Source of the DNA: Parasynechococcus marenigrum WH 8102
Lineage (GTDB): Bacteria > Cyanobacteriota > Cyanobacteriia > PCC-6307 > Cyanobiaceae
Length of the DNA: 32,000 nucleotides
NCBI RefSeq assembly: GCF_000195975.1
Contig: NC_005070.1
Coordinates: forward strand, 810,001-842,000
Direction of reading: 5' to 3'
Shown: positions 4,790-25,925 of the stretch, one piece after another
Layout of the letters: each line of letters opens with the position of its first letter
Position numbering within the stretch: position 1 is the first letter of the stretch
Position numbers and translations under genes: made by a program
The notes under the pieces: generated by a model
What the model was told of the DNA's origin: nothing
Database searches by the model: none
Seen by the model: the letters and a program-made list of their open reading frames with translations, nothing else

Positions 4790-5763
4790 TGACCCGCTGG
4801 CTGGATCGTCTGATCACGCTGCTGATGTTGGCGCTGCTTAGCTGGGGCGGTTGGGTTGTGGTGCATTGGCTCCTGCATGGGGCCGACTGGTCCGTGGTGA
4901 GCGCCAACCTGCCGCTCTTTGCCGTGGGCAGTTACCCCTCGGATCAGCGTTGGCGGCCCCTGCTCTGGATCTCAACCTGCGTGGTGCTGGTGGTGTTGAC
5001 GCTGACGGCGCCAAGGGGGGCGGGCTGGCGCCGTGCGTTGCCCCCGCTCTGGATTGCCATGGCGCCGCTGGGATTGTGGTTACTGGCGGGGGGGCTGGGT
5101 CTTCTGCCCGTTGGAACACGCCACTGGGGCGGACTCACCCTCACCCTGTTGCTGACAGCGGGGAGCGGCTTGCTGGCGCTGCCATTGGGGGTGTTGCTGG
5201 CCCTCGGCCGCCGCAGTGATCTGCCGGTGCTGCGCTGGAGCAGCACGGTTTATATCGAGTTGATGCGAGCCGTGCCGCTGATCGCGGTGCTGTTTTTCGG
5301 GCAACTGCTGATTCCGTTGTTCCTGCCGCCAGGGTTGGAGATCAACCGTGTGCTCCGAGCGGTGCTGGCTTTTGCCCTGTTCGCAGCGGCTTACATCGCC
5401 GAGGACGTGAGGGGCGGGTTGCAGGCGATTCCCCCCACCCAGCGGGAGGCTGCTTCAGTGCTCGGTCTGTCTCCGTTGCAGACGCTGCAGTTGGTGGTGC
5501 TGCCCCAGGCGCTGCGTGTTGCTCTGCCATCGCTCACCAATCAGGCGGTTGGGCTGCTGCAGAACACCAGCTTGATGGCGATTCTCGGCCTGGTGGAGCT
5601 GCTGGGAATCAGCCGCAGTCTGCTGGCCAATCCGGCCTTCATCGGCCGCTATTTGGAGGTGTATCTCTGGTTGGCTGCTGTTTACTGGCTGGCGTGCACG
5701 GCGATGGCTCTGCTGGCCCGCCACCTGGAAGTCCAGCTCGACCCCGTTCGATTCAACCGATGA
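4789..5763 (+). CDS. natH: Amino-acid ABC transporter permease (AapM/NatH type)
   Basis: Multi-TM protein with the EAA-type loop AAYIAEDVRGGLQAIPPTQREAASVLGLS. It shares an ATGA overlap with the next gene at 5760-5763. Confidence 0.85.
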   Translation: MTRWLDRLITLLMLALLSWGGWVVVHWLLHGADWSVVSANLPLFAVGSYPSDQRWRPLLWISTCVVLVVLTLTAPRGAGWRRALPPLWIAMAPLGLWLLAGGLGLLPVGTRHWGGLTLTLLLTAGSGLLALPLGVLLALGRRSDLPVLRWSSTVYIELMRAVPLIAVLFFGQLLIPLFLPPGLEINRVLRAVLAFALFAAAYIAEDVRGGLQAIPPTQREAASVLGLSPLQTLQLVVLPQALRVALPSLTNQAVGLLQNTSLMAILGLVELLGISRSLLANPAFIGRYLEVYLWLAAVYWLACTAMALLARHLEVQLDPVRFNR

Positions 5764-6500
5764 CTGTTGCCATCCGCGCCACCGACCTGGTGAAGAGCTA
5801 CATCGCTGGGGTGAGGGCTCTGGATCGGGTGAGTCTGGAGGTGAGCAGCGGTGAGGTGCTGGTGGTGATGGGTCCTTCCGGATCGGGAAAGAGCACCCTG
5901 ATCCGCACCTTCAACGGACTTGAGAGGCTGGATGGTGGCGCCCTCGATGTTCTTGGGGTGCGTCTGGATTCCACCCATGCTGATCCTCAGGTGCGGGCGA
6001 TCCGCCGTCGGGTGGGAATGGTGTTTCAGCAGTTCAACCTGTTCCCCCATCTCTCCATCCTTGAGAACATCTCCCTCGCGCCGGTGAAGGTGCAGAAACG
6101 TCCGAAGGCGGAGGTGGAGCAGCGGGCGCTGGAGTTACTGGAGCAAATGGGGATTCAGGAGCAGGCAGAGAAGTACCCGGCACAGCTCAGTGGCGGCCAG
6201 CAGCAACGTGTGGCGATCGCCCGGGCCCTCGCCCTGGATCCTGAGGTGATGCTCTTTGATGAACCCACCAGTGCCTTGGATCCGGAACGGGTCAAGGAGG
6301 TGCTGGATGCCATGCGTCAGCTGGCTCGCGGTGGGATGACCATGGTGGTGGTGACCCATGAGATCGGCTTCGCCCGCGAAGTGGCCGATCGCGTGATGTT
6401 CATGGATCAGGGCCAGGTGGTGGAGACGTCGGATCCAGTGACGTTTTTCTCGGGGGCTCGGGAGGAACGCAGCCGCCGCTTTCTCAGTCAGATGGTCTGA
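5760..6500 (+). CDS. bgtA: Amino-acid ABC transporter ATP-binding protein (AapP/BgtA type)
   Basis: Walker A GPSGSGKST, signature LSGGQQQRVAIARAL, Walker B MLFDEPTSALD and H-loop VVTHE are all present. I chose the start at MTVAIRATDL (ATG 5760) rather than the longer 5694 ORF because of the ATGA coupling. Confidence 0.9.
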   Translation: MTVAIRATDLVKSYIAGVRALDRVSLEVSSGEVLVVMGPSGSGKSTLIRTFNGLERLDGGALDVLGVRLDSTHADPQVRAIRRRVGMVFQQFNLFPHLSILENISLAPVKVQKRPKAEVEQRALELLEQMGIQEQAEKYPAQLSGGQQQRVAIARALALDPEVMLFDEPTSALDPERVKEVLDAMRQLARGGMTMVVVTHEIGFAREVADRVMFMDQGQVVETSDPVTFFSGAREERSRRFLSQMV

Positions 6501-6509
6501 TGTCTCGCT

Positions 6510-6758
6510 TCAGGCTCCCCGTCCAGGGCCAGGATCTGAATCCAGTTCAACGATGACGTACTCGATTCGATCGTCATCGGAGCAGCAGAGGTCGCCGTAG
6601 TAGCGCTCCAACTGCTCGTAGGCCATGTCGTAACTGCTGAAGGACTGCCCGGTCAGCCCGTCCTGTTGCCCGTCGCTGCGAATGATGCGATGAACTGGGG
6701 GGCGCTCGCGTTCCTGGTCAGCCTCAGCCATCCACAAGGGGAAGTCGCGCCAGGGCAC
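6510..6758 (-). CDS. Small acidic hypothetical protein (73-82 aa)
   Basis: GC3-rich codon pattern on the minus strand. Start is either GTG 6758 or ATG 6731 (MAEADQ...); the ATG gives an 8-nt ATGGCTGA overlap with the upstream small ORF. Confidence 0.55.
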   Translation of the reverse strand: MPWRDFPLWMAEADQERERPPVHRIIRSDGQQDGLTGQSFSSYDMAYEQLERYYGDLCCSDDDRIEYVIVELDSDPGPGRGA

Positions 6759-6921
6759 GCTCGGCTGCCACCAGTTCCCGTTCGGTACTCATCCATCTCT
6801 CATTGCCGAGGGGGAGGTTCTGGACCTGGTCGGCAAGCAGCAGCATCAGCTGCTCACAGCGTTCTCGAAGCTCCTGACGCAGCACGGCACAACCGCTAGA
6901 CAGATGAAAGCCATGGCACAT
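6724..6921 (-). CDS. Small hypothetical coiled-coil-like protein (about 65 aa)
   Basis: ATG at 6921 (MCHGFHL...). The longer 7032 start would overlap the AEC transporter gene. Codon usage is plausible and the ORF is coupled to the downstream small ORF. Confidence 0.35.
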   Translation of the reverse strand: MCHGFHLSSGCAVLRQELRERCEQLMLLLADQVQNLPLGNERWMSTERELVAAERALARLPLVDG

Positions 6922-6962
6922 GGGTGGCCGCTGTCTAGCTTCAGGGCTGGCAGTGGAAGCCC

Positions 6963-7880
6963 GTGCTGCGTTTTTTGCTGGAGTTGCTCCCCGCACTCCT
7001 GCTCGGTTTCTGGGGCGGACGTCGTTATCCAACCCTGTCCGGGCGTCTCGCTATGCCGCTGGTGCGGTTCGGCGTGCCCATCAGCGTGATGGGTCTGCTG
7101 TTGAGAGGTGGGCTCGGTGGCGAGATGGTCGTGGCCGCTGTCCTGGCCGTGCTCGCTATCGCGCTTGTGCTGCTCCTGGCCCATCGTCTGCCGGGTTTCA
7201 ACGGTCTGCAGCGATCTTCTCTGCGGCTTGGCAGTTGCATTGGCAACACCGCTTATGTGGGGATTCCACTGGCCCTGGCTTTTCTGCCGAGCGAGGCCCT
7301 GCCGATCAGTATTGGCTACGACCTCGGCGCAACGTTGCTGACCTGGAGCCTTGGTCCGATGTTCATCGGTGCGGCGCCCTTGGGCCGGTCGCCCCTGTGG
7401 AGTCATTGGTTCATCAATCTCAGCAGCAGTCCCGCAACCCGTGGCTTATTGGGAGCGTTACTGGTCCAATGGACCCCTTGGAGCTCCGTCGTCGCCGAGG
7501 CACTGTGGTGGCCTTCACGGGCGGTGATCGTTGTGGCCCTTGTGGTGGTGGGCATGCGGCTGGGGAGCCTTTCGCGCGATGCCGTGTCGTTGTCGCCGAC
7601 GCGCCTGGGATTGGTGCAGGCGCTGGTGGTCAAGCTTGGCTTGTATCCAGGACTGCTGCTTCTTTTGGGGTTCGTGTTGCCACTGAATCCTTTGATGATT
7701 CAAGCCATCACCTTGCAGGGCGCCGCCCCAACGGCCATCTCACTGTTATTAATCGCCGAGTCTGTTGGTGTTGATCAGGAGCGCGCAGCTGGCCTTGTGT
7801 TCTGGAGCACTGTTTTGTCGTTGATCACGGCTTCGCTTTGGGGGACGGCACTGTCGTTGCTGATGCCAAGTGGTGGGTGA
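6963..7880 (+). CDS. AEC (auxin efflux carrier) family membrane transporter
   Basis: 305 aa with a GTG start and about 8-10 hydrophobic helices. The N-terminal LLPALLLGFWGGRR...VRFGVPISV pattern is typical of AEC/MdcF-like permeases. Confidence 0.75.
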   Translation: MLRFLLELLPALLLGFWGGRRYPTLSGRLAMPLVRFGVPISVMGLLLRGGLGGEMVVAAVLAVLAIALVLLLAHRLPGFNGLQRSSLRLGSCIGNTAYVGIPLALAFLPSEALPISIGYDLGATLLTWSLGPMFIGAAPLGRSPLWSHWFINLSSSPATRGLLGALLVQWTPWSSVVAEALWWPSRAVIVVALVVVGMRLGSLSRDAVSLSPTRLGLVQALVVKLGLYPGLLLLLGFVLPLNPLMIQAITLQGAAPTAISLLLIAESVGVDQERAAGLVFWSTVLSLITASLWGTALSLLMPSGG

Positions 7881-8135
7881 ATGGACGGCTTCATGTTCAT
7901 TCAGAGGGTTGCTTGGAAATATCCGTCATGGTGCTAATACGTTTTATGAAGAGGTGGAGATCTGTTCGTGCCTAGGCCTTGTGACGGTCTGGCAACCGTC
8001 GTTACATTGGCGGGGTAGCGACCGGGGAATTGAGGTGCAGCAGGTGGATCTTGTCGGTTCGTTGGGACTTGTGTTGTTGATTACAGCCTTGACGGTTCTG
8101 GGATATCGCATCAACCACGTTGTTTGATTGTGAAC

Positions 8136-8150
8136 TTGCGCCAAGCGCAA
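8136..8150. other. Perfect stem-loop TTGCGC-CAA-GCGCAA in the long AT-richer convergent gap
   Basis: Read directly: 6-bp stem with a 3-nt loop. No clear U-run follows on either strand, so terminator status is uncertain. Confidence 0.3.
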
Positions 8151-8269
8151 AATTATCTGGAATTGCTAATCAGTTAAGGAGTGCTTGTTGCTTGATTGGT
8201 GAAAAGTTTTTGAGGTTAAGTGGCATGATTCGTTGTCGTTTGTGAATCGTTCTTGGAGCTGGCTGTTGC

Positions 8270-8872
8270 TCAGCGTGGTTGAAAACAGCGAAAGGTGAGG
8301 TTGATTCTTGGTGTCTTGATGCGCCTGCGCTGGGGCACGCCATGCAGCCAATCCCGTTGACATCCGGGGTGCATGATCAGCAGATCACCGCTTGTCAGCT
8401 CAAGGGTGTGACGGTGCTGCCGTTGATGGCGATGGCGCAACTGGAAGTCCCGGTTCGATCCCAGAGACAGAGAGGCGATCGGTTGGCTCTGGTCGATCTC
8501 CGCTTCGTCATCGGCATGCCACCCCATCCGGTCTTCCCCATGGCGGTAAAGGTTGAGCAGGCAGCCATTGAATCGACAGCCGCAGGCTGTGTTGACCTGG
8601 TTCAGCATGGGCAGGAACCAGTTGGGCCAGCCTGCTCCGCAGTGCCGGGTCCCGCTGTAGCGATAGGACACGTCCTGTTCTGCCAGAAACATCGTCAGAC
8701 GCGGCACCGGATGGTGGCGGCCATAGACCTGAACGATCGGTTGCTGCCAGTGAACCCTTCTCATCAAGGTTGAGGACCAATCGATGGCTGTGAGCGGCGG
8801 CAGCCAGCTGCGATGGAGGGTCCAAGGCAGGGTTGTTGATTCAGATTGGATCTGTAAGACGTCGTCTCCCAT
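8270..8872 (-). CDS. alkB: Alpha-ketoglutarate/Fe(II)-dependent dioxygenase AlkB (alkylation repair)
   Basis: Carries WHADDE (HxD), DWLHGV (distal His) and RINLTFR (2OG-binding Arg). I chose the start at MGDDVLQ (8872), giving about 200 aa as in typical AlkB. Confidence 0.8.
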   Translation of the reverse strand: MGDDVLQIQSESTTLPWTLHRSWLPPLTAIDWSSTLMRRVHWQQPIVQVYGRHHPVPRLTMFLAEQDVSYRYSGTRHCGAGWPNWFLPMLNQVNTACGCRFNGCLLNLYRHGEDRMGWHADDEAEIDQSQPIASLSLGSNRDFQLRHRHQRQHRHTLELTSGDLLIMHPGCQRDWLHGVPQRRRIKTPRINLTFRCFQPR

Positions 8873-9689
8873 GACATCAACGTTGTTAATCCTTGGCGCA
8901 AGCCTGATGGATGCCGGCAATGTGTCGCGGGCTTCGGATGATCTGGTGCTCGGGGAGCAGATTGCAATTGCCATGGGGGGTGATCCCCAGGATGTTCAGT
9001 TGTTCCCTCTGCCGGATCATCCCCGCCCCCAGTCAGCTCGGTTGCACAACTACGCCCATGGGGGAGCGCAATCCGGGAGTGGGCCCAGTCTTGAGGAGGA
9101 AGCGGGCAATGTCCGCATCGGGTTCAAGCGACAGGTGCGGGCCGTTCGTCGACATGCTGCTTTTTATCAGTCACTGAGCGACGTGGATGTGCTGATCTCT
9201 GCTGGGGCCAATGACCTTCTCGATCAGCTGGAGGACGGCTCGGCGTTCGCCGCAGTGCTCAATACGGAACATCGCCGTGATGATCGCCAACTCATCTGTA
9301 GCAATGCCAAGCGGATCGTTCGTTATCTTCGGCGTGGGGTTGATCGTTTGACCGGTCTGGTGGATGAGGTGGTGGTGGCTGGAGCTTTCCCGGTGTCTGT
9401 AACTCCTGAGGTTCAGTCGACGGCGGAGAAGCTTGATTCCGCAACGTCCGATCGCCTCGTCGAGATCTTGGATGGCATCGGCGCCAAGGTTCAACGAAAG
9501 CTTGAACGCCACTTTGCTGATGATGGTTCTGTTGCGGTTCTGAATCTGAAAGCGGCATGGGACAGGGTTCAAGCCCCTTCATTTGTTGATGCGGTGCACC
9601 CCAGCAGCGACACGAGTCGTCAGCTGGCGGAACTGATCGTTCCTGAACTGATGCAGCAGCTCAACAGTTTCGGCTTTTCGGAAGGGTGA
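8871..9689 (+). CDS. SGNH/GDSL-like hydrolase
   Basis: Block I variant LLILGASLMDAGN, block III ISAGANDLL and block V DAVHPS. I chose the start at MTSTLL (ATG 8871). Confidence 0.6.
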   Translation: MTSTLLILGASLMDAGNVSRASDDLVLGEQIAIAMGGDPQDVQLFPLPDHPRPQSARLHNYAHGGAQSGSGPSLEEEAGNVRIGFKRQVRAVRRHAAFYQSLSDVDVLISAGANDLLDQLEDGSAFAAVLNTEHRRDDRQLICSNAKRIVRYLRRGVDRLTGLVDEVVVAGAFPVSVTPEVQSTAEKLDSATSDRLVEILDGIGAKVQRKLERHFADDGSVAVLNLKAAWDRVQAPSFVDAVHPSSDTSRQLAELIVPELMQQLNSFGFSEG

Positions 9690-10048
9690 CGTCCCATGAA
9701 GGGACCGCAGATGATCGGGATCCTTCCCATACATTCCTGGGTATGGGAGCCCGCATCACTCAGGACGAATTTCTCAAGCGTGCTCGGCAGCGCTTCGGGG
9801 ATCAGTTTGATTACAGCCAGATCCGCTGGAGAAGCTTCAAGAGCCCAGTGAAGATCCGCTGTACGCACCATCCGGTTCAGGAGATCACGATCACCCCTGA
9901 GAAACATCTGCAGACCCTGGGAGGCTGCAGGCACTGTCTGCGGGAGCGGCGGATCGCCGCCTTGGAACGGGAGCTCAATCGCCGGTCAGCACCCGAGCGG
10001 ACCCTTGCTCCGGAATCTGAAACTCAGGCGGTCAAGCTCACCCGCTGA
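9686..10048 (+). CDS. Small protein with a phage-type zinc-ribbon motif (FxxKAxxxxGxxxDYSxxxxxxxxxxxxxxCxxH...HLxxxGGCxxC)
   Basis: FLKRARQRFGDQFDYSQIRWRSFKSPVKIRCTHHPVQEITITPEKHLQTLGGCRHC matches, from memory, a domain common in phage and giant-virus homing-endonuclease-associated ORFs. GTG 9686 forms a GTGA overlap with the SGNH stop. An alternative ATG lies at 9743. Confidence 0.55.
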   Translation: MTSHEGTADDRDPSHTFLGMGARITQDEFLKRARQRFGDQFDYSQIRWRSFKSPVKIRCTHHPVQEITITPEKHLQTLGGCRHCLRERRIAALERELNRRSAPERTLAPESETQAVKLTR

Positions 10049-10917
10049 TAGCAGAACCACAGCCACTGCTGGAACAGCAGGTTGCGATGGGATCGCCAGG
10101 AGGTCTGGGGTTGGTCGGCATCGAAGTTCTCCGGCGGCGGCACATCACCGCGGGCCCGATCCCGTTCCATTTCACCGAGGATCCGTCCCACGTTGTATTC
10201 CGGATGGCCGAGGTGCATCAGCTGGCGCTGATCCGGTGTTTCAAAGATCGTGTAGCCGACGTCTTCTCCATAGGCCAGCAGCCTCAGTCGACCCTGGCGC
10301 TGGGCTGACTCCATGGCGCTGTCGGGCAACCCGGCGTGGCGGCTCTGCGGACAGAGAAATCGGTCGTCCTGGGTCCCCATCAATGAATGTCCAGGAATAA
10401 GGCTGCGCAACGGGTAGATGCCGAACAACTTTCGTTCGAACGGAATCTTGTCCACACCGGCCAGATAAGCGAGTGCAAAGCCGGCCCAGCACAGTCCCAA
10501 AGTGCTGGCGCAGCTATGGCGGGCCTCCTCGATCAGTTCCACCAGTTCCTGCCAGTAGTTGACCTGCTCGAAGGGCAGGTGTTCCACCGGTGCGCCCGTG
10601 ATGATCAATCCGTCCAGTGGTCCTTGGTGAAGGGCTTCCTCCCAACTGACGTACAGATCCTTGAGGTGCTCCTGGTCCCAGCTTTTGTAGGCATGGGAGG
10701 CGAGCCGGATCCACACCGGTTCGATCTGGAGGACGGACAGACCCAGGGGGTGCAGCAGGTTGAATTCGTACTGCTTGCCCAGGGGCATGATGTTGAGAAT
10801 GCCGATCCGCAGGGGCCGGATGTCCTGGAGTTCCGCCTGAGCGGGTTCGATCCAGGAGATCCTGTTGCGCTCCACGGCACCGATCTTGTGGTAATCGCGG
10901 GGAAGGATCAGTGCCAT
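10024..10917 (-). CDS. metA: Homoserine O-acyltransferase, MetA family
   Basis: N-terminal RIGILNIMP, active-site region STLGLCWAGFAL, and full-length similarity to MetA/HTS. Confidence 0.9.
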   Translation of the reverse strand: MALILPRDYHKIGAVERNRISWIEPAQAELQDIRPLRIGILNIMPLGKQYEFNLLHPLGLSVLQIEPVWIRLASHAYKSWDQEHLKDLYVSWEEALHQGPLDGLIITGAPVEHLPFEQVNYWQELVELIEEARHSCASTLGLCWAGFALAYLAGVDKIPFERKLFGIYPLRSLIPGHSLMGTQDDRFLCPQSRHAGLPDSAMESAQRQGRLRLLAYGEDVGYTIFETPDQRQLMHLGHPEYNVGRILGEMERDRARGDVPPPENFDADQPQTSWRSHRNLLFQQWLWFCYQRVSLTA

Positions 10918-10937
10918 GGGCTGGTCGTCGTCGTCAA

Positions 10938-12966
<2,029 letters not shown>

Positions 12967-22220: not shown

Positions 22221-23171
22221 TTGGTGCTGATCACCCGTTCACTGCCCTTCCCCCCGCTGCAGCGCCGGGCTCTCACCACCCTTCAGGTGAATCTCGGCTA
22301 TCGCTGCAATCAGAGCTGCAGCCACTGCCACGTCAATGCCGGTCCCACCAGGACCGAAATGATGAGCGCGGAGCTGGTGGCGCTGATTCCTTCCGTGCTG
22401 GGGCGACGAGCGATCCGTTGTTTGGACCTCACCGGCGGGGCTCCCGAACTTCACCCTGACTTCCGTTCCCTGGTGCGTCGCGCCCGGGATCAGGGGGTTG
22501 CTGTGATCGATCGCTGCAATCTCACGATTCTTTCGGAGCCGGGACATGACACCTTGGCCCAATTTCTGGCCGACCATCGGGTCGGGGTGATCGCCTCCCT
22601 GCCCTGTTACAGCGCCGCCAATGTCGACCAACAGCGGGGCGATGGAGTGTTTGAACGCAGCCTTGAGGGTCTTCGGATGTTGAATGACCTCGGCTACGGC
22701 AGTGGGGACCCGGAACGATCCCTTGATCTGGTGTTCAATCCGCATGGTCCGTCTCTTCCCCCAGCTCAGGGGCTGCTGGAGGCCGATTACAAACGCGAGC
22801 TCGGATCCATGGGCATCCGCTTCGACCGGCTGCTGACCCTGGCCAACATGCCGATTCAGCGCTTCTCCCGCCAGTTGGAGCTGCAAGGTCGGCTGACCGC
22901 CTATCAGCGCCTGCTGGAGGAGGCCCACAACCCCGCCAATCTCGCGGCCGTGATGTGTCGCCAACTGCTCAGTGTCGATTGGCAAGGTCATCTTTATGAC
23001 TGCGATTTCAACCAGCAACTGGCCCTGTCAGCCCAGGGCGGCGTTCGTCATCTGCGCGATCTGCTGGATGACTCGATGGTGATCGAGGGTGATCCGATCC
23101 GAACGGCGCAGCATTGTTTCGGCTGCACGGCGGGGGCGGGATCGAGCTGCGGTGGGGCACTTCAGGGTTGA
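22221..23171 (+). CDS. arsS: Arsenosugar-biosynthesis radical SAM / Cys-rich domain protein
   Basis: TLQVNLGYRCNQSCSHCHVNAGP (CX3CX2C) plus the C-terminal HCFGCTAGAGSSCGG. Start is TTG 22221 or GTG 22224, after GAGGAG. Confidence 0.8.
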   Translation: MVLITRSLPFPPLQRRALTTLQVNLGYRCNQSCSHCHVNAGPTRTEMMSAELVALIPSVLGRRAIRCLDLTGGAPELHPDFRSLVRRARDQGVAVIDRCNLTILSEPGHDTLAQFLADHRVGVIASLPCYSAANVDQQRGDGVFERSLEGLRMLNDLGYGSGDPERSLDLVFNPHGPSLPPAQGLLEADYKRELGSMGIRFDRLLTLANMPIQRFSRQLELQGRLTAYQRLLEEAHNPANLAAVMCRQLLSVDWQGHLYDCDFNQQLALSAQGGVRHLRDLLDDSMVIEGDPIRTAQHCFGCTAGAGSSCGGALQG

Positions 23172-23446
23172 GCCCGGTCCGTGCCAGCGATGCGGTTGAT
23201 GGCGACGCCGGCGGGGGCCAGCAGCAGCACCGTTTCACTGATGCGTTGCTGCTGGCCATCCAGGGCATGCACCCCTCCTGAGACCAGATCAGCGGCGCGC
23301 TGGGCAAGATCTGGAGTGAGACGACTCAAATTGAGCACCACAGTGCGTTGTTCCCGCACAGCCAGCACGGCTTCCAGGGCGTCATTGAACTGATCGGGCA
23401 TCAGCACAACCACGTCGTGCCATCCATCGGAGCGACTGTTCACCAT
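23162..23446 (-). CDS. Minimal SepF (DUF552) domain protein, 94 aa
   Basis: VVVLMPDQFNDALEAVLAVREQRTVVLNLSRLTPDLAQRAADLVSGGVHALDGQQQRISETVLLLAP aligns by eye along the B. subtilis SepF C-terminal core. Confidence 0.75.
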   Translation of the reverse strand: MVNSRSDGWHDVVVLMPDQFNDALEAVLAVREQRTVVLNLSRLTPDLAQRAADLVSGGVHALDGQQQRISETVLLLAPAGVAINRIAGTDRAQP

Positions 23447-23495
23447 GGGGTCATGATGTGGGGCTGTTGCTGAACGCGTGGTGTCGCCTGCAGGA

Positions 23496-23702
23496 ATGTT
23501 GCTCGCTTTGCTGGGCCTGGGGCTCTGGGGAGGGGTTGTGTCAGCTCATGATCACGGCGGGCAACCGAAGCAGGCGATGTTCAAGACGCGCGCTGAAGCG
23601 GAGGCAGCGGCTCCTGGCTTTGGCTGCCAAGGGGCCCATCCCATGGGTGAGATGTGGATGGTCTGTGAGAAGCATGGTCAATCCGAGCAGCACGGACACT
23701 GA
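23496..23702 (+). CDS. Small secreted His-rich protein with a GCxGxHxMGxxWMxCxxH motif
   Basis: Signal peptide MLLALLGLGLWGGVVSA, then HDHGG..., and a C-terminal HGQSEQHGH. The motif is shared with the next gene. Alternative GTG starts lie at 23478 and 23481. Confidence 0.7.
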   Translation: MLLALLGLGLWGGVVSAHDHGGQPKQAMFKTRAEAEAAAPGFGCQGAHPMGEMWMVCEKHGQSEQHGH

Positions 23703-23705
23703 GCC

Positions 23706-24104
23706 ATGGCAACGGAAGGGGGACATTGCGGCAGCAAACCGAAGCGGATTGCCATCGGGGTCGCCCCGCTGGGCACCATTTCGATCGGCATCGTGCCGAT
23801 GGGGGTGATTTGTATCGGTGTGGTGCCGATGGGAGTTGTCTCCATCGGCGTGGTGGCGATGGGAGTCTTCAACGCCGCCATCGTTGGGATGGGGCTGGTG
23901 GCCGTCGGGGTGAACACGATGGGCGTGATCACGGCCGGGCCAATGAGCATGGGATTGATTCAGATCCGCTCAACCACCAACCCCCGCTACCTCGCCTACC
24001 CCAGCCGTGAGGAGGCGGAAGCCCAGGCGAAGGTTCTGGGTTGTGAGGGGATGCATCGCATGGGTGATCGCTACTGGATGCCCTGCAATGAACACCCCAA
24101 GTAG
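23706..24104 (+). CDS. Membrane protein: hydrophobic pentapeptide-repeat domain plus a C-terminal GCxGxHxMGxxxWMxCxxH motif
   Basis: Lies 3 nt after the previous stop. Residues 15-86 are hydrophobic with Gly at every 5th position. The C-terminal YPSREEAEAQAKVLGCEGMHRMGDRYWMPCNEH is paralogous to the upstream protein. Confidence 0.7.
   Translation: MATEGGHCGSKPKRIAIGVAPLGTISIGIVPMGVICIGVVPMGVVSIGVVAMGVFNAAIVGMGLVAVGVNTMGVITAGPMSMGLIQIRSTTNPRYLAYPSREEAEAQAKVLGCEGMHRMGDRYWMPCNEHPK
23784..23873 (+). repeat. Three tandem 30-nt repeats (ATCGGYRTSGTGSCGATGGGRGT...) inside the CDS
   Basis: Units at 23784-23813, 23814-23843 and 23844-23873, read directly. Unit 1 contains the perfect palindrome ATCGGCA-tcg-TGCCGAT. 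Confidence 0.85.
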
Positions 24105-24113
24105 GGGAACGCC

Positions 24114-24569: not shown

Positions 24570-24597
24570 CGATCAGAATCAGCTTTCTCAATAGTAG

Positions 24598-24607
24598 TCA
24601 TTAATGA
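24598..24607. promoter_or_regulatory. AT-rich perfect palindrome TCATTAATGA between the fur-family gene and a divergent operon (candidate operator)
   Basis: Read directly. It sits 29 nt upstream of the fur GTG. Its resemblance to Fur/Zur boxes is only partial. Confidence 0.3.
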
Positions 24608-24686
24608 GAGGCTTTAGCTCATCGTTCTTGGGATGGGTGCTTTACCCACAACGGTGATACGTTCCGGGCGGTGGTTTTTTAGAACG

Positions 24687-24953
24687 ATGGAGACTCACGT
24701 GCTCACTTTCAGCATCACCAAGCCTTTCGTCGAGTGGGCCAGGTTCTACGACCAATCAGCGCCCTTCCAAAGAGCAGCCGGCATCACTTCGCTCTATCGC
24801 GGTGTCAGCAAAGACGACCCCAGCAAGGTGTGTGCCGTCATGCAAGCCCTACCCGGTGTGATGGAGCAGTTCATTGAAGACAACACCGAGTTGATCGTCT
24901 CCTCCGGTCACGTTCTGGAGAGCACCGTCAGCCAGGTGTTCCTCGCCGGCTGA
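24687..24953 (+). CDS. Small conserved cyanobacterial hypothetical protein (88 aa; possibly DUF3764-like)
   Basis: METHVLTFSITKPFVEWARFYD...LYRGVSKDDPSKV resembles a picocyanobacterial family I recall; this is unverified. Linked to the next gene by a TGATG overlap. Confidence 0.6.
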   Translation: METHVLTFSITKPFVEWARFYDQSAPFQRAAGITSLYRGVSKDDPSKVCAVMQALPGVMEQFIEDNTELIVSSGHVLESTVSQVFLAG

Positions 24954-25186
24954 TGGGCTGGAATCCTGCCCGGGCCTGGACCAGTCAGCACCCTGTCGGG
25001 GGGTATCGCCACTTTCAGCTGGTTCTGCAGGGTGGTCGTGGCGATCAGCGTTGGGTGGAGCTGGCGGCGGTGCTGGCACCGGGCTTTCGTGAGCGGGTGC
25101 TCTGGAGTGATTTGGAGGATCCCCACCGCTGGGTGAGTGGTTGGCAGTCCATTCCCGAGAGCCATGCGGATCCTGCAGCTGAGTGA
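24953..25186 (+). CDS. Trp-rich small hypothetical protein (77 aa, 6 Trp)
   Basis: 1-nt stop/start overlap with the upstream gene. Trp occurs at residues 3, 9, 34, 51, 60 and 64. Reminiscent of the 'tryptophan-rich conserved hypothetical' family. Confidence 0.55.
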
Positions 25187-25925
25187 CCCCCATCTGGTGG
25201 CAGCCGATGCGGCCCTGGTGCGTGAACGCCCGGCCATGACTCTGCTCGATCGGGCCCTGCTGGAGGGGCAGCGCAGCCATCCCGATTTGGTGCTGATCAG
25301 CGGTGATCTCTGCCAGGACGAGAGCTGGGGCGGCTACGTCCGCCTGGGTCGCCTTCTAGATCGTCATGTCAACGTTCCAGTCGGCCTATTGCCCGGCAAC
25401 CACGATGACCCGCTGCTGCTGAAGGCCGTGCTGGGTCGTCGTTTCTGCACGGCTCCCGCCGAGTTGATTGTTCAAGGCACGCGGCTGGTTCTGCTCAACA
25501 GCCACCGCAGCGGTTGTTCCGCCGGTTGGCTCGGGCCACACCAGCTGCAGTGGTTGCAGGAGCGACTCGCTGATCCTTTGCGCCGGGATCTTCCTCTGGT
25601 GGTGGCCCTGCATCACCCGCCGGTGGCCATCGGTCACCCCGTGATGGACACGATGAATCTCAGCGATCACCACCAGCTAGCAGCCATTCTTCAGCCCCAC
25701 GCTGCGTTGCGAGCTGTGGTTTTCGGTCACATCCATCAGCACTGGCACGGAACCTGGCCGCAGCGTCCGGATGTCCCCCTGCTTGGCTGTCCGTCCACCC
25801 TGCGCAGTTTTCAGTGCGTGCAGCCCTGCCCGCTGGGTCGGGCGGAAGACCCGGGGGGACGTCTTCTGGAGATTCACAACGATGGCAGCCTCAGCCACCA
25901 GGTGCTGCGCTGGTCCCCCTGTTGA
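25164..25925 (+). CDS. Metallophosphoesterase (Icc/CpdA-like)
   Basis: Motifs LSDPH, SGDLCQ, PGNHD, LHHPP and FGHIHQ. ATG 25164 overlaps the upstream gene by 23 nt. Confidence 0.85.

Follow-up and report, generated by a model that had tools for sequence, protein, structure and literature searches.

CusF, CopM, PcoE and PCuAC are small, exported proteins with a role between the membranes, and they carry His and Met ligands (in CusF also Trp) together with Met/His-rich flanks. CusF binds Cu(I) at His/Met/Trp sites, and Ctr1 is supplied by ectodomains rich in Met and His, which in human Ctr1 include an amino-terminal Cu(II)- and Ni(II)-binding (ATCUN) motif. The periplasmic copper systems of freshwater cyanobacteria, CopM, CopRS and CopBAC, are to our knowledge not known as described in Prochlorococcus or marine Synechococcus. 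These organisms are very sensitive to free copper, and they live in a habitat where Zn, Ni, Co and Fe are extremely low. Here we analyze two adjacent genes, which we call P1 and P2, in Parasynechococcus marenigrum WH 8102. They lie in a stretch of 32,000 nucleotides (contig NC_005070.1, positions 810,001 to 842,000; hereafter the window, from whose first letter the coordinates of WH8102 features are counted). An earlier reading of this stretch from its letters alone, the original prediction, took the pair for a soluble and a membrane protein that share a Cys/His/Met/Trp motif, abut a gene for a Fur-family regulator, and serve in metal binding or metal sensing in the periplasm. Our analysis confirms the observation and supports that first interpretation in part; the result is a worthwhile lead and not a demonstrated function. 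As we read it, P1 and P2 would be the two halves of a metal-binding module in the cell envelope, with copper as the most likely metal, a reading toward which the evidence modestly tips.

P1 is a small exported protein (23478-23702, forward strand; 74 amino acids from a GTG start) and P2 a membrane-anchored one (23706-24104, forward strand; 132 amino acids from an ATG start; CAE07379.1, Q7U7W6). The gene on the far side of P2 encodes the Fur-family regulator CAE07380.1 (24114-24569, reverse strand; Pfam FUR, 5e-33); it is convergent with P2 and is listed as a neighbor, with no implication that it belongs to the system. The list of open reading frames agrees with the original prediction to the nucleotide: 3 nt separate the stop of P1 from the start of P2, 9 nt (24105-24113) separate the stop of P2 from that of the Fur-family gene, and the peptides quoted for the two modules match the translations exactly. 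The original GenBank record of WH8102 contains no accession for P1. The only database entries for it are shorter forms, one of 73 amino acids from the GTG at 23481 and one of 68 amino acids from the ATG at 23496 (RefSeq WP_042503213.1). We dropped the identification of P1 with SYNW0863; P1 bears only the later RefSeq accession.

Both proteins are bona fide members of Pfam family PF12518 (DUF3721), the family that had been named as a possible cover for the shared motif. P1 scores 56.9 bits and P2 52.6 bits, roughly twice the gathering threshold of 27 bits, and BLASTP aligns P1 to P2 with 17 identities in 39 positions (44%, E 1e-9). Because of the Pfam matches and this alignment, the C-terminal module common to the two proteins represents homology and not chance; that is, the modules are paralogous as claimed. 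The domain spans residues 35-66 of P1 (FKTRAEAEAAAPGFGCQGAHPMGEMWMVCEKH; 23580-23675, forward strand; Pfam 1.7e-15) and residues 98-131 of P2 (23997-24098, forward strand; Pfam 3.8e-14). Its WM(P/V) motif reads WMPC..H in P2 and WMVC..H in P1, where the change from P to V is typical of the P1 subfamily, and the His and Cys that the Pfam description gives as conserved are invariant in the family alignments of both proteins. The statement that DUF3721 has no assigned function also held: we found no function, solved structure or publication for it. Full-text literature searches returned no mention of DUF3721, PF12518 or SYNW0863/0864/0865, and the supplements of the WH8102 omics papers that we searched mention neither the family nor the genes. 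What is already known is the Pfam family itself and the secreted or membrane nature of the proteins, which is recorded in curated annotations. The Pfam description lacks the pairing, the complementary His-rich segments and the fusions to copper proteins reported below, and we found no existing description of them. The metal-binding argument, the complementary His-rich architecture, the copper-protein fusions and the breadth of the family thus appear to be new.

In an alignment of 39 P1 sequences the invariant positions are C50, H54, M56, W60, M61, C63 and H66, along with A33, M34, F35, T37, A41, A44, A45, F48, G52, A53, M59 and V62. In the P2 domain alignments, C113, W124, M125, C127 and H130 are invariant, and G115, H117 and M119 are at least 90% conserved. 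When 1.84 billion representatives were searched with a profile of the domain alone, 549 clusters at 50% identity were recovered. Across 170 domain instances in the best 150 of these 549 representatives, the core C-x-G-x-H-x-M-G...W-M-x-C-x-x-H was kept at 100% for the first C, 99% for G, 97% for H, 80% for M and 88% for the second G, and in the second half at 91% for W, 85% for M, 84% for P, 98% for C and 78% for the final H. The Cys, His and Met residues of the motif are therefore conserved in homologs, at 78-100%.

AlphaFold2 gives confident models of the domain. In P1 (predicted local distance difference test score, pLDDT, about 83) residues 33-35 form a strand, 38-44 a helix and 53-56/59-62 a hairpin; in P2 (pLDDT 77-89) the helix covers 101-111 and the hairpin 117-119/123-125. 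From the register of the P1 hairpin, C50, H54, M56, M61 and C63 would share one face, with W60 and V62 turned toward the helix. At about 33 residues this strand-helix-hairpin is much smaller than the oligonucleotide/oligosaccharide-binding (OB) fold of CusF or the helical bundle of CopM. Neither P1 nor P2 has sequence or fold similarity to CusF, CopC, CopM, PCuAC or the cupredoxins in Pfam, NCBIfam, PDB and Foldseek comparisons, PcoE likewise shows no such similarity to DUF3721, and the domain adds two invariant Cys to what those proteins have. A Foldseek search of the P1 model against PDB and BFVD gave nothing significant (the best PDB match had E 3.7), and a profile search against PDB sequences gave no match at E up to 10. 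NCBIfam contains no model that matches P1 or P2, and in Pfam and NCBIfam the two proteins match no family other than DUF3721 and GLTT. The spacing C-x3-H-x8-10-C-x2-H, with the helix before the hairpin, matched no Pfam zinc-finger model and no solved fold. P1 and P2 would represent the periplasmic metal-binding or chaperone type of protein, built on an unrelated and structurally uncharacterized mini-domain.

The sequence of P1 supports the claim that it is exported. Its predicted signal peptide (MVSPAGMLLALLGLGLWGGVVSA; 23478-23546, forward strand) has a hydrophobic region at residues 7-21 in the hydropathy profile, followed by V-S-A, and the -3/-1 rule applied across homologs places the cleavage at VSA/HDH. 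Hydrophobic signals with AxA-type sites or L-x-G/A-C lipoboxes are found throughout the family; lipoboxes such as LIGCS replace the cleavable signal in several Synechococcus clades and in essentially all Prochlorococcus P1 proteins. Cyanorak-style curated annotations call P1 a 'conserved secreted protein (DUF3721)' and P2 a 'conserved membrane protein (DUF3721)'. After the predicted cleavage, mature P1 would be about 50 residues long and contain little other than one DUF3721 domain and the His-containing tail GQSEQHGH (23676-23699, forward strand). Of 75 distinct P1 tails, 85% end in His and the mean is 2.1 His; Prochlorococcus orthologs have a poly-His end that reaches HNHHHHH. The original prediction also saw an ATCUN-type terminus in the exposed HDH. 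Such a site needs a free alpha-amine, a His at mature position 3 and a residue other than Pro at position 2. By a crude -3/-1 rule, 37 of 65 distinct P1 junctions would leave X-X-His at the new N-terminus (for example HDH, HEH, NHH, GHH, KDH, GSH, EAH); the lipoprotein forms, including those of Prochlorococcus, lack it.

The N-terminus of P2, presumed to be cytoplasmic, carries the motif HCGSKPK (23724-23744, forward strand) followed by R14. In 64 sequences C8 is invariant and H7, G9, K11, P12 and K13 are at least 90% conserved, and the motif as a whole is nearly invariant across Synechococcus and Prochlorococcus. We considered an analogy between its HCG and the Ni-hook and rejected it: P2 has neither a second Cys nor the Pro-Cys-Gly-x-Tyr context, and it lacks the processing site. 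By hydropathy, a hydrophobic region then covers residues 14-83 (23745-23954, forward strand), uncharged after R14. It had been described as a Met/Gly-rich hydrophobic domain; it is present, and it can be refined to seven decapeptide repeats of the form xxIGxVPMGx, each ending in Met-Gly. At the DNA level, some of these decapeptides go back to a tandem repeat of 30 nt at 23784-23866 (2.8 copies, 79% match). P2 matches Pfam PF01744 (GLTT) with 61.8 bits against a threshold of 21 (4.1e-17, in four stretches), a match that is formal and functionally uninformative because GLTT is a repeat of unknown function. AlphaFold2 models the hydrophobic part, at low confidence, as beta strands rather than helices. 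The segment after it is acidic or His-rich in homologs. P2 is probably oriented with its N-terminus in and its C-terminus out: K11, K13 and R14 directly precede the roughly 70 uncharged residues, which by the positive-inside rule points this way, and the domain that P2 shares with P1 is an exported one in P1. A sensing role finds no support, since the predicted cytoplasmic part of P2 is only about 13 residues long and has no output domain.

The two genes extend well beyond WH8102, over nearly all Synechococcus and Prochlorococcus. P2 relatives occur in 543 species genomes when one genome per species is scanned. In a collection clustered at 90% there are 130 homologs of P1 and 1258 of P2; all contain PF12518 and all come from marine Synechococcus, Cyanobium or Prochlorococcus. 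Among the 80 loci retrieved for analysis of synteny, P1 is immediately upstream of P2 in 49, from Synechococcus through high-light Prochlorococcus, so the soluble-plus-membrane pairing is indeed kept. The gene order ArsS - (SepF-like) - [P1] - P2 - Fur, with the last gene convergent, is found in all Synechococcus and low-light-IV-like Prochlorococcus loci. In the other Prochlorococcus and the Cyanobium-like loci Fur and ArsS are absent, while P1 and P2 are still paired.

His-rich segments are distributed over the pair in a complementary way. In genomes with P1, the P2 linker is usually free of His and the His residues sit in the P1 tail, with a mean of 3.3 His in this comparison. In genomes without P1, the P2 linker is itself His-rich (for example HDHHGHHGHHGG), and the protein ends in HH. 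Counted per linker, the median is 0 His residues alongside P1 (n=52) and 5 in its absence (n=29; Mann-Whitney p = 9e-11, a figure that ignores phylogeny and is likely to reflect only a handful of independent transitions). From this pattern we argue that P1 and P2 share one task, to which the His-rich segment contributes. The reading frames stand out in two loci, Cyanobium-like or freshwater. In locus L074 a P1-type protein and P2 lie within one stop-free frame (5476-6570), and in L079 the frames overlap (5559-6548), which suggests that P1 and P2 are naturally fused there or that a stop codon has been lost. Several Prochlorococcus loci have further genes nearby. In L062 (5899-8881) a P1 lipoprotein with a His tail is followed by P2, an 87-amino acid protein, a HupE/UreJ transporter and a ZnuA-family binding protein; the 87-amino acid protein, which also occurs in L065 and L068, has a GLTT-type hydrophobic repeat and no DUF3721. 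The zur-znuABC genes, with Zur-box-like palindromes, lie 0.3-5 kb downstream of P2 in L059, L069, L070 and L075 (positions of about 6900-11100). A porin-like gene with a His-rich N-terminus is located just upstream of P1, and divergent from it, in L064 and L070, and in L059 a cytochrome c6-like gene comes after P2.

Fusions of the domain to known copper proteins are a second line of evidence. Protein P0336 (396 amino acids) has an N-terminal DUF3721 followed by the Ctr copper transporter domain PF04145 (54 bits, cutoff 25.3). Its DUF3721 is placed where Ctr proteins have their metal-collecting ectodomain, and many P1s are predicted to expose X-X-His much as human Ctr1 does. P1 and P2 are not themselves Ctr proteins, and the hydrophobic part of P2 has no Ctr match in Pfam. 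Protein P0281 (1851 amino acids), a giant secreted protein, has Cu-oxidase_2/_3 domains along with FG-GAP and RTX repeats, and it also contains a DUF3721 of the P1 type that is followed by the His-rich tail SHEHHHGGSHSGH; its cluster has 17 members, on contigs of up to 69 kb, one of them from a metagenome-assembled genome of Cyanobium sp. NAT70. The proposed metal-binding role thus gains support from the complementary His-rich tails and linkers and from the Ctr and multicopper-oxidase fusions. Because of this complementarity and these fusions, binding of a metal is likely, with copper as the leading candidate and Zn, Ni and Co as alternatives. The set of His, Met, Trp and Cys ligands would suit Cu(I) chemically, by general comparison with proteins such as CusF and with no claim of membership in their families. 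We rate binding of a transition metal by the P1/P2 module in the envelope as likely, and we name copper as its physiological metal only tentatively, at somewhat less than an even chance; the ambiguity of poly-His, the Zn and Ni genes near some of the pairs and the phage copies of the domain are what hold both estimates down.

The module might work as follows. P1 would be exported by its Sec signal peptide, or in other clades by a lipoprotein signal, and P2 would hold its DUF3721 in the periplasm, at the end of a hydrophobic anchor that is studded with Met and free of charge, with HCGSKPKR in the cytoplasm. In the strand-helix-hairpin of each domain, Cys, His, Met, Met and Cys would line one face of the hairpin and Trp would pack against the helix. 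Such a face could bind a soft metal such as Cu(I), while the His-rich tail or linker, and in many P1s the X-X-His N-terminus, could capture Cu(II) or other divalent ions. Soluble P1 and tethered P2 might then act as a periplasmic metal buffer or relay that sequesters the metal or hands it over to inner-membrane transporters. Of the elements of this model, the homology, the conserved motif, the export signals, the operon-like pairing, the complementary His-rich segments and the domain fusions were observed; we infer the topology, how the ligand face is arranged, which metal is bound and which way it is passed on. A bolder extension has the Met-Gly repeats of P2 assemble into an oligomeric, Met-lined membrane conduit that relays Cu(I) between the P1-loaded periplasmic DUF3721 and the cytoplasmic His-Cys motif; we regard this as a long shot.

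Several observations weigh against the copper module. The ligand-face geometry is deduced from DSSP registers in a predicted structure, and the two Cys of the domain could form a disulfide in the oxidizing periplasm rather than hold a metal. Many P1s, though not all, have a predicted ATCUN-type N-terminus, which makes it an accessory trait of some clades rather than a defining one. The Ctr fusion is a single sequence from an assembled contig of 1.5 kb, and its recurrence is not established because a search seeded with P0336 returned P0336 alone. We found no copper genes in the WH8102 neighborhood of P1 and P2, and some Prochlorococcus pairs lie near zur-znuABC (4 of 24) or HupE/UreJ (3 of 24) rather than near copper genes. 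His-rich tails are equally typical of proteins for Ni, Zn and Co. Because the full motif also occurs in cytoplasmic phage proteins, the conserved residues could form a structural Zn site or determine the fold. The link of P1 and P2 to Fur, finally, is weak and positional only. Some of these points favor the same architecture with Zn, Ni or Co as its metal, in which Cys2His2 (C-x3-H...C-x2-H) would form a tetrahedral site and the poly-His tails would scavenge for ZnuABC or HupE/UreJ. The conserved ligands do include two Cys and two His, and the poly-His tails of Prochlorococcus P1 and the HDHHGHHGHH-type linkers of P2 resemble the ZnuA loop and the Ni chaperones HypB and UreE. The zur-znuABC genes of the four loci named above fit this account, as do HupE/UreJ next to the pair in L062, L066 and L077 and the ZnuA-family protein in L062, and for the phage copies, which would sit in a reducing cytoplasm where C2H2 sites usually carry Zn, structural zinc would be the default reading. 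However, the invariant Met and Trp are atypical of Zn or Ni sites, both informative fusions join copper proteins, and metal-gene neighbors occur in a minority of loci only. A Zur box is missing as well: with GAAAATGATTATCATTTTC, the type found between znuA and znuC in Prochlorococcus, and at most five mismatches, there was no consistent match upstream of P1 in L057-L080. The gene identifiers do not appear in the searched supplements of the WH8102 Zur-regulon paper either, although P1 is outside the original annotation. On balance we think Zn, Ni or Co rather unlikely to be the metal. Still less probable, in our estimate, is that DUF3721 is a structural or adaptor domain, held by a disulfide or a structural ion, that has no part in metal trafficking and serves, for example, in cell-surface organization or as a target of phage interaction. 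Its presence in phage portal, prohead protease and polyvalent-type proteins agrees with such a role, as do the lack of any fold or sequence relative with a known metal site and a hydrophobic repeat in P2 that is unlike any known transporter. This account does not explain, though, why His-rich flanks recur and are distributed in a complementary way, why the domain is fused to Ctr and to a multicopper oxidase, or why Met and His are conserved beside Cys.

The Fur-family gene calls for separate treatment, because part of the original prediction leaned on it. Its product scores 42 bits against SynZur (7NE9) and 78 bits against a Fur, and its closest solved relatives are Fur and PerR, so that we ruled out a Zur ortholog. 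The gene adjoins P2 in 57 of the 80 loci, which comprise all Synechococcus and the low-light-IV-like Prochlorococcus. Upstream of fur is a palindromic operator, TCTCATTAATGACTACTATTGAGA (24586-24609, reverse strand), an exact match to TCTCAWTAR-N4-TACTNTTGAGA where 0 would be expected by chance in the window. It is a near-perfect palindrome and differs from the classical Fur box. Each of 48 loci has a single copy of the pattern, in every case upstream of fur, and the copy at 24586-24609 probably marks autoregulation of fur. We found no such operator upstream of P1 or P2, either in the window with three mismatches allowed or in the 48 loci. The adjacency that suggested a metalloregulator link is therefore real, but the association is positional, because the genes are convergent, P1 and P2 have no copy of this operator and the adjacency is lost in most Prochlorococcus. 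The tail-to-tail arrangement could still matter through transcription, if read-through from P1-P2 ran antisense to fur, or the reverse, and so tuned Fur. In Anabaena sp. PCC 7120, alr1690 is convergent with furA and shares its transcript with an antisense furA RNA (PMC6202907). The alr1690/alpha-furA case resembles P1-P2/fur in that a gene for a hydrophobic protein is convergent with fur and leaves room for antisense read-through; it differs in having transcript evidence, and the likeness drawn here is one of arrangement. Apart from this cyanobacterial precedent, antisense read-through is favored by the 9 nt between the stops, where we found no terminator-like hairpin with a scan that covers one simple terminator type, and by the convergent adjacency in 57 of the 80 loci. 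That adjacency may just reflect the strong core synteny of picocyanobacteria, however, and its loss in most Prochlorococcus also speaks against a general role. We consider regulation of this kind, which is compatible with the other readings, to be more doubtful than probable.

P1 and P2 may have their own promoter. A conserved block at 23449-23461 (forward strand; GGTCATGATGTGG, core CATGAT at 23452-23457) is a candidate -10 element for P1-P2, and in many Synechococcus loci a CATAGT or CATGAT block precedes the start of P1 by 25-35 nt, irrespective of the upstream gene. A generic sigma-70 scan placed no promoter at this block, and an Rfam scan found nothing. The conserved upstream neighbor of P1 is an ArsS-type arsenosugar radical S-adenosylmethionine gene (22221-23171; TIGR04167, 431 bits). 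We rejected an arsenic link through this gene: the synteny is real, but a chemical rationale is absent and P1 appears with its own promoter-like block. Between the two, on the opposite strand, is an open reading frame for a SepF-family protein of 94 amino acids (23162-23446), which overlaps the 3' end of the ArsS gene by 10 nt and is present in some related loci only. Downstream of fur are genes for a DUF3764 protein (24633-24953) and a CpdA-like metallophosphoesterase (25137-25925), syntenic in the closest Synechococcus clades only.

Beyond picocyanobacteria, DUF3721 appears, in what seems to be a new observation, in uncultured phages, in a eukaryote-type Ctr protein and in actinobacteria-like lipoproteins with two or three copies. 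The full motif lies within phage portal, XkdF-like prohead protease and DUF5824 proteins (P0360, P0273, P0355, P0318; L081-L096), which belong to the cytoplasm or the virion, and the domain is also found in polyvalent-type proteins. The phage copies are often doubled, and they come from uncultured viral contigs; a tblastn search of INPHARED (cultured phages) with P2 and two phage-type DUF3721 segments found nothing. A secreted subgroup (P0263, P0269, P0286, P0299, P0305, P0338) has a second His-rich motif, HHVPGDDH(T/S)G, right after the signal peptide.

Its occurrence in proteins of the phage head, in a transporter of the Ctr type and in a giant multicopper oxidase gives DUF3721 an interest beyond this locus. 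P1 is a good experimental lead: the protein is very small, it is found throughout phototrophs of global importance, and the original annotation of WH8102 passed over it. For want of an accession in that GenBank record, it may have escaped earlier array and proteome studies. With mature P1 at about 50 residues, its metal-binding chemistry and a structure by nuclear magnetic resonance should be easy to obtain. If P2 did form a conduit, it would be a minimal picocyanobacterial system for copper uptake or export, unrelated to P-type ATPases, Ctr proteins or resistance-nodulation-division (RND) systems. The P1/P2 pair, represented in the 543 species genomes, is a candidate for the missing periplasmic step in the trace-metal handling of picocyanobacteria.

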